DNA of 25,384 bases, taken from Candidatus Colimorpha enterica (GTDB lineage: Bacteria > Bacillota > Clostridia > Oscillospirales > CAG-272). Both the position numbers and the translations under genes were made by a program. Positions 11,334 to 16,508 of the stretch are shown here, piece by piece. The stretch covers positions 1 to 25,384 of the forward strand of contig JAGHTD010000196.1 in NCBI GenBank assembly GCA_018065475.1, in the 5' to 3' direction. Each line of letters begins with the position of its first letter. Within the stretch, counting starts at the first letter, position 1. The notes beneath the pieces were generated by a model. The model saw only the letters and a program-made list of their open reading frames with translations. It ran no database searches and was not told the DNA's origin.

Positions 11334-13220
11334 ATGAAAATTGAACTCAAAATCGCCGAAGAGCTGAAAAAAGGTGTCGAATATCTTGCAGAGGAAAAGA
11401 ACGTCGAGCTCGGAGAGGGCGGATACGTCCTCGAAGGGGTAAAATGCGGCGAGCCCACCCTCCGCGTCACCCTCGACGGCAAAAAGATCACCGTCCGGTA
11501 CTGCGAAAAGTGCCAGTTCTTCCGTGCCTTCGGACTTGCTTTGCAGCATATCGAAGAGGGAGAAAAGGCGTTTGACATAGTCGAGCACCCCTCCTTCACG
11601 ATGAACGGCGTTATGTTCGACCTCAGCCAGGGCAACGCGGCGTTCAATCAGAAGGCATCGAAGTCCGTCATCAGAAAAATGGCGCTCATGGGTCTCAACA
11701 CGCTCATGTTCTACCTCGAGGACAACTACGAGGTTGACGGTCAGCCCTATTTCGGCTATATGAGACCGATCTACAAGCAGAGCGAACTGAAAGAGCTTGA
11801 CGACTACGCATACGATCTCGGCATTGAGATGATCCCCTGCATACAGATCCTCGCGCACCTTCCCGACGCGCTCAGATGGAACGTTTACAGCGGGATCCGC
11901 GACTATGAGGAATGCCTGCTCGTCGGTGAACCCAAGACGTACAAGTTCATCGAGGACCTCATCACCTCCGCGGTCAAGCCCTTCCGCACGAAGCGCATAA
12001 ACGTCTGTATGGACGAGGCGTTCAAGCTCGGCTCCGGCCAGTACCTGAGAAAATACGGCTACAAGACCACCGGAGAGATCATGAAGGAACACCTTGCAAA
12101 GGTCTCCGAGATCCTCGACAGACACGGCCTCAAACCGATGATGTGGTCGGATATGTACTTCCATACCTTCGGAAACGGAAGCTATCACGAGCCGAACTGC
12201 TACGCTCCTCAATCGACGAAGGACCTCATCCCGAAGAATATGAGTCTCATCTTCTGGGATTACAGCTATCTGTCGAAGGAGCACGAGGAACTTCTCGACA
12301 TCAACCTCGACCTTTGCGAGAGGACGGTCTTTGCCGGCGGATGCTGGGCATGGCTCGGCTACGGCCTCTCCTATTTCCACACGATAAAGCACTCCGTGGA
12401 TGCGCTTGAGCTTTGCAGAAAGCACGGGCTGAAGGAAGTCTTCATGACCACCTGGGGCGACAACGGCACCGAGGCGCTTCAGAACGTCAACCTCGTCGGA
12501 GCGCAGGTCTATGCGGAATGCGGATACAACGAGACCTTCGATCAGAAGGCGTTTGAGAGCAGGTTAAAGTTCTGCACGGGCGGAAACGCCGCCGACTTCG
12601 AGCTTATGGACGCTCTCGACAGATCGCCCTACGCCCTCCAATACACCCCCAACTACTCGATCAACACGACGAAGTTCGCCATGTGGCAGGACATCCTCAC
12701 AGGTCTTTACGACAAGAACCTCGAGGGGCTTGAAATGGACAGACACTACGAGGAGCTGACGAAGAAGCTCGAGGGCTCCGACAGACGCAACGGCGAGTTC
12801 AACGGCCTCTTCGGTATCAACTACAACGTGGCAAACGTCCTCGCCCTCAAGAGCGAAATGGGTCTGAGACTGAGAAAGGCCTACCTCGGCGGAGACAAAG
12901 AGACGCTGAAAAAGATCGCCTGCGAGGAGCTTCCGGAGCTCTATAACCGCGTTCTTGCCCTCCACGAAGCACACCGCGAGGCGTGGTTTGAGATCTACAA
13001 GCCGACCGGCTGGGACATCATGGATATGAGATACGGCTCGCTCGAATCGAGAATAAGAAGCGCCGAGATACAGGTCAAGGCGTACCTTGACGGCAAGCTC
13101 GACAGCATCGAGGAGCTTGAAAAGGAACGCCTGCCTTACAACGGCGTCACCGGACCCCTCAAATGGCAGAACTTCTACGGAGACATCGTTTCGGCTTCGA
13201 GGATCGCACCGAAGGCGTGA
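11334..13220 (+). CDS. Beta-N-acetylhexosaminidase, GH20 (GcnA/GH20C-like with helical C-terminal domain), no evident signal peptide
   Basis: GVMFDLSQG, MGLNTLMFYLED, IPCIQILAH, NVCMDEA (catalytic DE pair), MMWSDM, TTWGDNG. Confidence 0.88.
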   Translation: MKIELKIAEELKKGVEYLAEEKNVELGEGGYVLEGVKCGEPTLRVTLDGKKITVRYCEKCQFFRAFGLALQHIEEGEKAFDIVEHPSFTMNGVMFDLSQGNAAFNQKASKSVIRKMALMGLNTLMFYLEDNYEVDGQPYFGYMRPIYKQSELKELDDYAYDLGIEMIPCIQILAHLPDALRWNVYSGIRDYEECLLVGEPKTYKFIEDLITSAVKPFRTKRINVCMDEAFKLGSGQYLRKYGYKTTGEIMKEHLAKVSEILDRHGLKPMMWSDMYFHTFGNGSYHEPNCYAPQSTKDLIPKNMSLIFWDYSYLSKEHEELLDINLDLCERTVFAGGCWAWLGYGLSYFHTIKHSVDALELCRKHGLKEVFMTTWGDNGTEALQNVNLVGAQVYAECGYNETFDQKAFESRLKFCTGGNAADFELMDALDRSPYALQYTPNYSINTTKFAMWQDILTGLYDKNLEGLEMDRHYEELTKKLEGSDRRNGEFNGLFGINYNVANVLALKSEMGLRLRKAYLGGDKETLKKIACEELPELYNRVLALHEAHREAWFEIYKPTGWDIMDMRYGSLESRIRSAEIQVKAYLDGKLDSIEELEKERLPYNGVTGPLKWQNFYGDIVSASRIAPKA

Positions 13221-13816
13221 TGATGGACTTCACGAAGATAAAGGCGTCGCTTGAAAAGAACGGCTATTCGGTGAAGGTCTTTGCTTCCTCCGCAGAGGCG
13301 AGGGACTACCTCGACGGCGAGATCGACGGTCAGACCGTCGGTATCGGCGGCTCGGTCACCGTGGAACAGCTCGGGCTTTACGACGTTCTTTCAAAGCACA
13401 ACGAGGTCTTCTGGCATTGGAGGCCGAAGGACGGGGACGAACGCGAAAAGGCGAAGAACGCCGGGGTCTATATCTCATCGGTCAACGGGATTTCGGAGAA
13501 CGGTGAGATAGTCAACATCGACGGTACGGGCAACCGCGTCGCGTCGGTGACCTACGGGCACGAAAAGGTCTATCTCGTCGCGGGGCAGAACAAGATCGCC
13601 CCCGATCTCGAGGCGGCGATATTCCGCGCGCGCAACGTCGCCGCACCGCTCAACGCGAAGCGCCTCGGAGTGAAGACGCCCTGCGCAGTAAACGGGGACA
13701 AATGTTACGACTGCTCCTCGCCGTCGAGGATATGCAAGTCGCTCTCCGTGCTTTGGAGAGCCCCCGGCGGGTGCGGATACGAGGTCGTCCTTGTCGAAGA
13801 AGACCTCGGGTATTGA
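13220..13816 (+). CDS. LUD-domain (lactate utilisation protein C-like) protein with a C-terminal Cys cluster
   Basis: Start moved to the ATGA overlap at 13220. GIGGSVT, NIDGTGNRVA, GQNKI, PCAVNGDKCYDCSSPSRIC. Confidence 0.8.
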   Translation: MMDFTKIKASLEKNGYSVKVFASSAEARDYLDGEIDGQTVGIGGSVTVEQLGLYDVLSKHNEVFWHWRPKDGDEREKAKNAGVYISSVNGISENGEIVNIDGTGNRVASVTYGHEKVYLVAGQNKIAPDLEAAIFRARNVAAPLNAKRLGVKTPCAVNGDKCYDCSSPSRICKSLSVLWRAPGGCGYEVVLVEEDLGY

Positions 13817-13832
13817 TCGTATCGGAACAAAC

Positions 13833-13861
13833 GCAAAAGCCGCCGAAAGGCGGCTTTTTGC
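13833..13861 (+). terminator. Intrinsic terminator of the sugar operon
   Basis: AAAAGCCGCC-GAAA-GGCGGCTTTTT directly after the last stop. Confidence 0.9.
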
Positions 13862-13920
13862 TGCTTTCAAGGGCTGAAATGAGAGGCCGGAGAAGTGTGC
13901 CTGCGGCACGTGATGAACCA

Positions 13921-14108
13921 GTAGGGTGAGCTGCGCTCGCCGGCTTGCAAATGTTCTGCGGAAATGATATGGCTGCCGTCCGTAGGGTACGGCCCCCGGA
14001 CGTACCGCTCAATGGTATCTGCACAAATTATCCGGCTACGTCGTAGGGGAGGGCAGCTACGCGCTATGCGCTCCACGAGCTTCGCTTACGCTCGGCTTGC
14101 TCCTCCCG
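13921..14108 (+). repeat. Three GTAG-tagged REP-like hairpins at 61-bp spacing; the third is interrupted by a 41-bp insert
   Basis: GTAG starts at 13921, 13982 and 14043. Stems: GGTGAGC/GCTCGCC; GGTACG/CGTACC; GGGAGGGGC/GCTCCTCCC once 14054-14094 is removed. Each stem is followed by G. Confidence 0.7.
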
Positions 14109-14220
14109 CTTGTATGCGGGGCACTAACTTGAAGCAAGCACCGACTGTCCACCTCCATCCGGATGAGGGATGCTACGCGCTTCGCGCTCCACGATCTCCC
14201 GACCGCAAGGCGGTCGCTCG
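14054..14220 (+). repeat. Two copies of a short hairpin cassette GCTACGCGC-TNN-GCGCTCCACGA...CGCTCG
   Basis: 14056-14078 and 14172-14194 match at 21/23 nt. Both end in CGCTCG (14089-14094, 14215-14220) after different middles. Confidence 0.7.
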
Positions 14221-14289
14221 CCGCCGGAGCCCGCGGCACTTTATTTGCTGTATCGCAATGAATAGAATATATAAAGAAACGATAAGGAT

Positions 14290-14473
14290 TAGCCTCCCCG
14301 AGATGCGAAGCATCTCTTGTAAGGGGAGGTGGCATCCGAAGGATGACGGAAGGGCTGTTTCGGACTATTCTAACATTTTGCAAAAGTTACATCCTTCAAG
14401 AACAACCCTTCCACCGCTCCGCGGTCATCGAGATGAGCTTGCTCATCTCTACCCCTATACACAGGGGAGGCTA
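14290..14473. mobile_element. 184-bp non-autonomous inverted-arm (MITE/REPIN-like) element
   Basis: Outer inverted repeat TAGCCTCCCC (14290-14299) / GGGGAGGCTA (14464-14473). Inner inverted repeat GGAAGGGCTGTT (14348-14359) / AACAACCCTTCC (14401-14412), 11/12. 41-bp AT-richer core. Mobility is inferred, not shown. Confidence 0.55.
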
Positions 14474-14585
14474 CCGCAGCCGCCGCGCGTAGCACACCTC
14501 CCGGAGGAAGGCGGACAAGCGAGCGCAGACTTCATAGTTAGTGTATACCTCACGAGGGGACTTGACGCTCGGGATAAACCCCATC

Positions 14586-14619
14586 AAAAAAACAGCAGAC
14601 CGATCCGGTCTGCTGTTTT
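14586..14619 (-). terminator. Intrinsic terminator of the heparinase II/III-like gene
   Basis: AAAACAGCAGACCG-ATC-CGGTCTGCTGTTTT 14-bp stem; the A7 run gives the U-tract on the minus strand. Confidence 0.88.
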
Positions 14620-14630
14620 CATATTATATA

Positions 14631-16445
14631 TTACCACTGAGCCACGGGTGTGACCTTTGCGCTCTTTGCGCTCTCGTCGTCTGCGGCGAAGGCAACGGCG
14701 ATCGTGTAAGCGTCCTTGCCCTTCATATTGATGACGAGCTTGCGTGTGCCGTCGTTGGGGGACTGACCTTCGATCTTCGGCGAACCGGGATGAGACTTTG
14801 CCTCTGCAACGGCGAACTCACCGTCAGCGAGGATCTCGCACCAGAAGGTCTTGCCGTCCTGGGTGAGCTTTGCGGTCTTGCCGCCGTTCAGGATCTCAAT
14901 GTCGGCGCAGGTGTGTGCGTACCAGTAGAGGTCGTCCTCTGCGGAGCATTTGATGTCGTCCTGGATGAGAACGGCTCCTGTCTTCTTGATGAGCTTGAGA
15001 CCGCGAAGGACGTTCTGACCGTAGTAAGCGGAGGTCATATCTGCGACCGCGAACGCCTCGTTCTCGTTTGAAGCGCAGGCGGAAATGTAGGTCTCGCCCG
15101 CCCACTTCTGGTCGGGAAGCTCGTTCGGGTTGAATACGACCGTGTTATGCCCCTCTGCGCGGACACGGTAGCTCTGATAGCAGCCTTTAAGGTTGTAGTT
15201 TTCTTTTTCAACGTCGGTGATGAAACGCGTGTCGGCGTAATCGACGATGAAGTCGCCCATATCGAGATGACCGTGGCAGACCTGGTTGTGACCGAAGTGG
15301 ATGCCCGTGAATACCGCGTCGTGATCCCATCCGGTACGGAACGTCGCGTTGGGAACGTCCTTCTGAACGTAATCGGTGGAAAGGTCGCTGATCGGCTTGT
15401 ATTCTTCGGTTCTGTAATGGACGGCGTCATAGCTGTCGGGATTTACCTTGCCCGCTATGATCGCGTCGATTCTCATAGCCGAAAGCGTGTAGTCGCCGGT
15501 GATGTGTCCGAGCCAGAGCAGGTCGGAGCAGTTCATGTTGGTGTATACGCCGCCGTCACCGAACTGGAAGGACTTGTACTCGTTGTTGGAGATCATAAGG
15601 GCGAAGTTTCCGGTCTTTTGGATGCCTTCCCAGTCGCAGAGGTCGAAAATGGAACCGACCGCGCTCTCAAGGAACGCTGCGTAGAGGGTGAGCTGTTCCT
15701 GACCGTAATGCCAGTAGGAGGAGCCCTCCATGTAGGAGCCGTCCCTGCCCTCGTAGATGTTGCGGATGAACTTGTATATCTCTCTGTAAACGTAGGTGAA
15801 GACGATCTCGCACTCTGCGGCTACGTCGCCTTCGTCGAACATCGCCATAGCGGCGGTGGCGATACCGCCTCCGCAGATGAACTTCCAGTTGTCGCCGGGA
15901 GTGTCGTTGTACCAGTTGTAGCCGGTCTGTCTGCGCGTCTGATAGAAATCGCACTCGAATGCGTGATGGAAGGAGTTGTTGACGATGGTCTTGCGGCATT
16001 TTGCTCTCTGCTCCTCGGTCATCTCGTGGTAGAACCAGTCGTAGCCGAAGCCCATGAACATTGCCGTCCAGCCGACGTCGAGATAGTGGTGCTCGGCGTT
16101 CCAGTCGGGCCACTCGGAGACGTTGACAAGCTCTGCGACCGCTCTGTCGGCGTACTTCTTCTCACCGGTGAGATAGTAAGCGAAGGCTAGGTCGAGGAGA
16201 TAGTTGTGGATGGTGTTGTGCTCTGCGGCGCGGAGACCGTCGTAGATACGGAACTGACCGAGACGCTTGTCGAGAGCGGCGTCTGCCTTTGCGATGACCG
16301 TTCCGTAGATCTTCTGCGCTACGGGATCGGTGGCGTAGGCGTTTTTCATTGCCGCAAGTCTGTCTTCGGTGAAAAGAAGACGGGGATGAACGCCGCGGCT
16401 GTGTTTCCACAGTTCGGCATATACTTCATGCTCGTTTTTTAACAT
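14631..16445 (-). CDS. Heparinase II/III-like polysaccharide/oligosaccharide lyase (alpha/alpha toroid plus beta-sandwich), no evident signal peptide
   Basis: HPRLLFT, WNAEHHYLD, NWKFI, GSYMEGSSYWHYG, HGHLDMGDF, RAEGHNTVVFN. Start 16445 (MLKN) chosen because GGAGGT lies 7 nt upstream; the ORF track gives 16460. Confidence 0.78.
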   Translation of the reverse strand: MLKNEHEVYAELWKHSRGVHPRLLFTEDRLAAMKNAYATDPVAQKIYGTVIAKADAALDKRLGQFRIYDGLRAAEHNTIHNYLLDLAFAYYLTGEKKYADRAVAELVNVSEWPDWNAEHHYLDVGWTAMFMGFGYDWFYHEMTEEQRAKCRKTIVNNSFHHAFECDFYQTRRQTGYNWYNDTPGDNWKFICGGGIATAAMAMFDEGDVAAECEIVFTYVYREIYKFIRNIYEGRDGSYMEGSSYWHYGQEQLTLYAAFLESAVGSIFDLCDWEGIQKTGNFALMISNNEYKSFQFGDGGVYTNMNCSDLLWLGHITGDYTLSAMRIDAIIAGKVNPDSYDAVHYRTEEYKPISDLSTDYVQKDVPNATFRTGWDHDAVFTGIHFGHNQVCHGHLDMGDFIVDYADTRFITDVEKENYNLKGCYQSYRVRAEGHNTVVFNPNELPDQKWAGETYISACASNENEAFAVADMTSAYYGQNVLRGLKLIKKTGAVLIQDDIKCSAEDDLYWYAHTCADIEILNGGKTAKLTQDGKTFWCEILADGEFAVAEAKSHPGSPKIEGQSPNDGTRKLVINMKGKDAYTIAVAFAADDESAKSAKVTPVAQW

Positions 16446-16508
16446 ATTCATTACCTCCATGGTAAGATGCCGCCCGACGGGCAGGCATTACGTTTTTTTG
16501 CTTCTCCC

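Follow-up and report, generated by a model that had tools for sequence, protein, structure and literature searches.

The window analysed here, i.e., the whole stretch of 25,384 nucleotides, is contig C125 of a metagenome-assembled genome (G000; 1.43 Mb in 334 contigs, 76% complete, 52% G+C). As this genome is incomplete and broken at repeats, all copy numbers given below are lower bounds. Two convergent genes, at 13163-13816 on the forward strand and at 14631-16460 on the reverse strand, each with its own terminator hairpin, are separated by an 810-bp spacer occupied by a cluster of hairpins (Table 1). The spacer is organized as a mosaic similar to BIMEs, with REPs and other conserved short motifs placed in varying order, and nearly every part of 13970-14530 was found again elsewhere in G000, in other combinations. 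Positions 13982-14108 form a direct REP doublet, in which a variant of a second REP family, REP-C, is followed by a long REP of the family REP-A. The same doublet occurs elsewhere with a short REP; in one such case, on contig C174, identity to the window is 89% and the alignment ends exactly at position 14053. In general, long and short REPs have the same sets of left and right neighbour modules.

Some regularities of spacing were also observed. The segment 13921-14108 contains three GTAG-tagged hairpins with different stems, whose starts (13921, 13982, and 14043) are 61 bp apart, and direct REP doublets with a linker of approximately 35 nt are recurrent across G000.

Table 1. Hairpin modules and their parts in the intergenic spacer of the window.
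Feature	Position	Strand	Remark
REP-C variant (second REP family) and 35-nt linker	13982..14042	+	First unit of the direct doublet with the long REP
Whole long REP-A, from the GTAG tag to the right arm, with a 7-bp basal stem, a 41-nt insert and a displaced apex	14043..14108	+	12 copies
GTAG tag and left basal arm of the REP stem	14043..14053	+	Identical to the start of 53 short REPs
Inserted block: degenerate GCTTCGC-type heptamers, two mini-hairpins	14054..14094	+	Boundary ambiguous by one G
23-nt head (three heptamers) within the long REP	14056..14078	+
Displaced apex (GCTTGC), right arm of the REP stem and closing G	14095..14108	+
Family B copy, with two hairpins in the slot that separates its first hairpin from the GGAGCCCG-type end	14151..14236	+	9 core-matched copies
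Same 23-nt head in family B, where it substitutes for the arms of the first hairpin in the slot	14172..14194	+
Inverted head-type B copy, left part only, broken off 9 nt into the head	14485..14527	-

The short REP-A is a 25-nt unit consisting of the GTAG tag, a 9-bp stem with one G.T pair, and a short CTTG-type apex. G000 contains 53 such units, representing 12 sequence variants; pair 7 of the stem is invariantly G.T, and two further pairs covary (G-C, C-G, T.G). Together with the 12 long copies described below, they are dispersed and mostly extragenic. Searches with reversed patterns, used as controls for the REP-A counts, yielded no matches. In published REPs, a GTAG or GTGG tag is located 0-2 nt 5' of the hairpin foot, and the hairpin has a basal stem of 7-20 nt that either ends in a loop of 2-5 nt or continues, past a bulge of 1-3 nt, into a second stem (PMC3733652, PMC6006769). 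In all 65 REP-A copies, including the one tagged at 14043-14046, the tag directly adjoins the foot of the stem, and the short form agrees with the stem and loop ranges as well.

The original prediction held that 14054-14094 had been inserted into such a unit and that its removal would rebuild a clean REP. Indeed, joining 14043-14053 to 14095-14108 yields a 25-nt unit with GTAG and a 9-bp stem, and 11 of the 53 short REPs of G000 are exactly this 25-mer. It was also found in 7 of 18 congeners (approximately 80 copies altogether, with a maximum of 30 per genome) and was absent from the 22 more distant relatives examined.

The long REPs of G000 (n = 12) are located on 11 contigs and have different flanks. 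Each of them contains an extra block of 25-43 nt, invariably between stem positions 7 and 8; thus, the window copy departs from the stem and loop rule, its seven basal pairs being followed by a 41-nt branch with two hairpins. The left end CAG[C/A]TAC and the right end GCTCG of the block are kept in the copies, with two small hairpins and an interior of 25-43 nt. Neither inverted termini nor a target duplication were found at the ends of the insert, only a 1-nt ambiguity of a G at the junctions. The whole insert was not found in G000 outside REP-A, and it does not show the variety of targets by which a self-moving cassette of the MITE or PATE kind would be recognized. At least three outer-stem variants carry the insert. 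One outer type is enriched among the long forms (6 of 12, compared with 11 of 53 short ones; binomial probability approximately 0.02), and the GCTTGC outer type accompanies 6 of 8 copies of the main insert subtype and 0 of 3 copies of the second one (p approximately 0.06, hand count). Insert variants hence partly track those of the outer stem, a pattern that descent of long REPs from one another would produce.

Copies of the insert consist of CA, two to four tandem heptamers GCTNC[G/A]C, and a short tail ending with GCTCG; the number of heptamers differs from copy to copy, e.g., two in C56a and four in C111. TRF described the C111 copy as 4.0 repeats with a period of 7 and the consensus GCTTCGC (low score, 35), and it did not call the heptamers in the window's own, more degenerate copy. 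GCTTCGC is the complement of d(GCGAAGC), a very stable DNA mini-hairpin, and the two mini-hairpins of the insert arise because neighbouring GC-TTC-GC units pair with each other. In the predicted single-stranded DNA structure of the long REP, the basal stem is extended by GCAGC pairing across a T bulge and carries two small hairpins. Folding energies of either strand, calculated for DNA or RNA, were no better than those of shuffled sequences (z from -1.4 to +0.1); thermodynamics was therefore set aside, and covariation and the comparison of copies were used instead. A search of Rfam 15 with the region 13500-14900 yielded no match, only three sub-threshold chance hits. Among the insert variants, the one in C96 has a fully compensated stem, and in C240 and C56b a stretch of the insert matches the following hairpin arm in reverse complement. 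Such variation would point to slippage and to small changes by template switching.

The long REP is lineage-specific, being private to G000 among the genomes scanned. The long-form pattern was not found in 25 relatives, 15 of them congeners, apart from an unrelated 16-nt insertion in G015. The head motif was absent from 40 relatives, and a search of 185,579 species genomes and 241 million metagenome records revealed only three chance matches to it, in high-GC DNA.

Insertions of a different kind were noted at the apex of short REPs, one in G000 (C288:2622-2673; about 22-27 nt, with a 5-nt direct duplication) and one in G015 (C18:15595-15635; 16 nt, with a 4-nt direct duplication). They are unrelated, and the C288 insert has no other copy in G000. 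Since both are flanked by duplications, the REP apex may be a true insertion hot spot.

Using a congener's protein resembling a RAYT (REP-associated tyrosine transposase), we located an intact RAYT-like gene in G000 (C240:4001-4732, L028) encoding a protein of 243 amino acids. The Pfam Y1_Tnp search of the genome had missed this gene, as REP insertions split the domain and leave a weak match; for the same reason, the NCBIfam family REP_Tyr_transpos matches with an E-value of 6e-17 and 61.8 bits, below the equivalog cut-off of 80. Homologues of the protein are named RayT at JGI. The Pfam search revealed no second Y1 transposase in the 76%-complete genome. The gene has REPs both inside and beside it, the mark of a cognate RAYT: two short REPs lie in frame before the HuH motif, an inverted long REP lies after it, between HuH and the catalytic Tyr, and two further REPs are located just downstream of the gene.

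The long REP of this gene provides an orthologous empty site. In the DNA alignment with the RAYT genes of three congeners (G016, G011, and G001), a single clean gap of 42 nt is seen in the congeners at the exact stem position, a length by which the reading frame is kept; thus, all three have a short REP where G000 has the long one, this being the one such case. Likewise, eight aligned homologues (excluding P0002) have GGASPSPT, or GTASPRPT in the most distant one, where the G000 protein has 14 extra residues. It follows from the gap and from the homologues without extra residues that the short form is ancestral and the long form is derived, so that the segment is an insertion, as had been claimed, judged both by the abundant paralogous empty forms and by the orthologous one. 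The covarying apex pair of the in-gene REP also differs from that of the congeners, so that the whole REP changed, and not just its middle. The only other protein with the long form, P0002, comes from an independent ENA assembly and is 87% identical; its extra residues correspond to a translation of the C96 copy of G000 rather than of the C240 copy, and this shared head variant would speak for exchange between copies.

In-frame REPs of RAYT genes vary in other respects, too. The two short REPs in C240 translate as VGEGLAPP and are located in a 48-bp tandem duplication before HuH. One or two forward REPs are present in the RAYT genes of congeners (in-frame REPs are also seen in L023 and L031-L033), and up to approximately four are present in distant homologues. 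A second RAYT paralogue, found in two congeners at L023 (G016 C32) and L024 (G010 C38), contains a different in-frame REP variant, VGRGLAPA, and its inverse, so the embedded hairpin differs between paralogous enzymes.

Downstream of the long REP the 23-nt head recurs, as predicted, with 21 of 23 positions identical; shuffling the window 100 times yielded no such match. The two sites share more than was first noted, namely 33 nt at 85% identity, with an extension of 5-7 nt to the left. A palindrome precedes the second head (14152-14168), also in agreement with the prediction, and the inverted 9-mer reported at 14485-14493 is present as well: it is the end of a truncated inverted copy of head-type B (94.6% identity to the copy in C115). 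CTAC in the head was considered as the tag of an inverted REP on the other strand; this was rejected, as the tag would lie 3' of its hairpin and the sequence preceding it forms no hairpin.

The further claim that 14171-14220 is a second copy of the same cassette, with an exchangeable middle, did not hold. The CGCTCG tail and the inner hairpin are present in all copies of another repeat family, B, as parts of its conserved core. Family B is private to G000 and comprises nine core-matched copies and a tenth one (C38) with a 1-nt deletion in the core. Four of the nine core-matched copies contain the head, and the remaining five have another stem around the same central heptamer. Since these five hold the core without the head, the part shared with the long REP is only the head of 20-23 nt. 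Judged by these copies, the head of family B replaces another sequence and is not an insertion.

Family B is itself a derivative of the scaffold of a larger family, D, in which a slot follows a first hairpin and precedes a GGAGCCCG-type end, and which has at least 62 copies in G000 (e.g., C59:2108-2294 and C240:1770-1948). The slot is occupied by many different hairpins (20 slot fillings), most of them with perfect stems and often with GNA triloops. The scaffold of family D was also found in five congeners, with other hairpins. The region 14290-14473 of the window is probably an element of the same kind. Family D copies often occur as inverted pairs approximately 135 bp apart, with different hairpins in the two arms.

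We propose, with a probability of approximately 0.6, that the segment 14043-14108 is an elongated version of the REPs associated with the RAYT of G000, and that it spreads as a unit. In this lineage, a block of 25-43 nt consisting of two to four degenerate heptamers came to separate stem positions 7 and 8, while GTAG and the seven basal pairs were retained. As the retained parts are those that such an enzyme would need, the long REP could be copied, replaced, and shuffled as a unit. The block may then have diversified by heptamer slippage, by small palindrome-making changes, and by exchange between copies; the match at 14172-14194 would mean that two repeat families have exchanged hairpin arms, and not that the cassette was inserted a second time. 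This proposal is favoured by the coexistence of 53 short and 12 long copies, the fixed position in the stem, the common flanks, the empty site and the change of the whole unit in the RAYT gene, the heptamer structure, the head variant shared with P0002, the restriction to G000, and the partial association with the outer stem. Against it one may count the three outer-stem variants, which would also fit repeated independent insertion, the duplication-flanked insertions at the REP apex in C288 and G015, and the window copy, in which TRF did not call the heptamers.

The original prediction regarded the insert as a very small mobile cassette that targets hairpins. The insertion as such is real; however, the block never occurs outside REP-A, and inverted termini and target duplication are missing. 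The accompanying idea of a parasite of parasites was not borne out, insert variants partly following those of the outer stem. Constant co-inheritance of the flanks, named beforehand as the outcome that would contradict mobility, was half borne out. In a more specific form, a tiny non-autonomous cassette would insert itself into REP hairpins after a GAGGG-type arm with the help of the RAYT or another enzyme acting on single-stranded DNA. This would account for the same position in three outer-stem variants, for the empty site in the RAYT gene, and for other insertions at the REP apex, and GAGGG followed by 2-3 nt does precede both head contexts. Ends of the IS200/IS605 type have subterminal hairpins and produce no target duplication, and the same combination, with two subterminal hairpins, is seen here. 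We nevertheless consider such a cassette unlikely, given that the whole block is confined to REP-A and that family B has the head only, as a hairpin replacement; moreover, the length of 25-43 nt changes by heptamer units, insert subtypes partly match outer-stem types, the outer stem of the RAYT-borne copy changed together with its insert, and a second Y1 transposase was not found in the 76%-complete genome. Equally doubtful is an origin of the block within the REP itself, through slippage during replication of the apex, followed by spread through gene conversion only, without transposition. Tandem heptamers differing in copy number, the head variant common to the in-gene copy of P0002 and a dispersed copy of G000, and the mosaic flanks seen everywhere agree with this scenario, but the homology arms are merely 7-14 nt long, the first heptamer is no obvious copy of the apex sequence, and the arrival of REPs at new sites would be left unexplained.

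A structured RNA, either a stabilizer of the 3' UTR or a small RNA with variable arms under selection for RNA folding, could be suspected from the invariant G.T and the covarying pairs on the GTAG strand and from the position downstream of a gene. It appears improbable, considering the lack of an Rfam match, folding energies no better than those of shuffled sequences, the in-frame translation of one copy within a gene, and the location of the window copy beyond the terminator of the upstream gene. An artefact of assembly in a fragmented metagenome bin, for which the 334 contigs and the location of several copies near contig ends could be cited, is highly improbable: the 12 copies are spread over 11 contigs with differing flanks, and P0002, from an independent assembly, encodes the same long form in its RAYT. 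On a more speculative note, and against what we regard as long odds, the RAYT, as an enzyme of single-stranded DNA, might use the REP apex as a landing site for joining small hairpin modules. REPs and at least two other repeat families of G000 would then contain exchangeable hairpin cargo that moves between hosts, and CTAC of the head, the complement of GTAG, would be the site of cutting and joining. If true, this would be a genuine nested parasite or a system for shuffling hairpins.

In several respects REP-A resembles the GTAG REPs that go with RAYTs of subclass 2.4 (RAYT group 4): they have in common GTAG at the foot, a short stem that is rich in GC and contains one non-canonical pair, tens of dispersed copies, and a single RAYT-like gene with in-frame REPs around HuH. 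The protein motifs are similar as well, being DHIH, FQ, and YIYDNP in G000. REPs in frame within tnpA-REP genes of this subclass have already been published (Quentin et al., 2018; PMC6006769). Unlike these elements, the long form has the two-hairpin branch of 41 nt in place of a loop of 2-5 nt, which lies outside the published hairpin rules. The taxonomic setting also differs: the REP families listed in the cited papers (PMC3733652, PMC6006769) come mainly from Proteobacteria, Cyanobacteria, and a few other phyla, not from Firmicutes, whereas the host here is an uncultured Clostridia-like lineage, judged by the names of homologues.

The nesting of REPs in palindromes is known from GTAG-15 of Anabaena, GTAG-23 of Thermomicrobium, and CGTC-1 of Halothiobacillus (Di Nocera et al., 2013; PMC3733652). 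There, too, a small palindrome lies inside another one at a fixed position; however, the REP is the guest in those families, whereas here it is the host and the heptamer block is the guest. The mosaic in the spacer resembles the BIMEs of E. coli, which are intergenic clusters combining REPs with other short conserved motifs in many orders. It differs from them in the other motifs, in the arrangement of REPs as direct doublets approximately 61 bp apart instead of alternating Y and Z units, and in the many modules that have a slot for exchangeable perfect hairpins. As in Rickettsia palindromic elements and in-frame REP insertions, a peptide was added without a break of the frame (14 amino acids in the RAYT), but the in-frame event here lengthened a REP already residing in the gene. 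The pneumococcal BOX element is a modular repeat of boxA, a variable number of boxB, and boxC, in which the copy number of the middle part varies and which folds into hairpins. The modular middle of varying number and the hairpins are shared with the long REP; BOX has neither a GTAG tag nor a link to a RAYT, and its module sizes differ.

The long form may be regarded as a natural experiment on recognition by the RAYT. It keeps GTAG and the seven basal pairs with the G.T, and its apex tolerates 41 extra bases, yet twelve copies of the unit exist, including the in-frame one within the RAYT gene itself. In addition, the insert is a sub-lineage marker within the REP population, which could make copying measurable against conversion, given strain genomes.

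The genome is unusually rich in REPs, slot-bearing scaffolds, and hairpin arrays. Arrays were observed at 38 places in G000 (e.g., in C63, C227, C246, and C177) and have three to eight units, in each of which the hexamer (GTGATG or GTGAAA) is fixed and the small hairpin behind it differs; to our knowledge, no named family is of this type. Their stems are mostly perfect, and the arrays are often located directly after the terminator of a gene and directly before a REP. A one-unit remnant of such an array is present in the window at 13897-13920.
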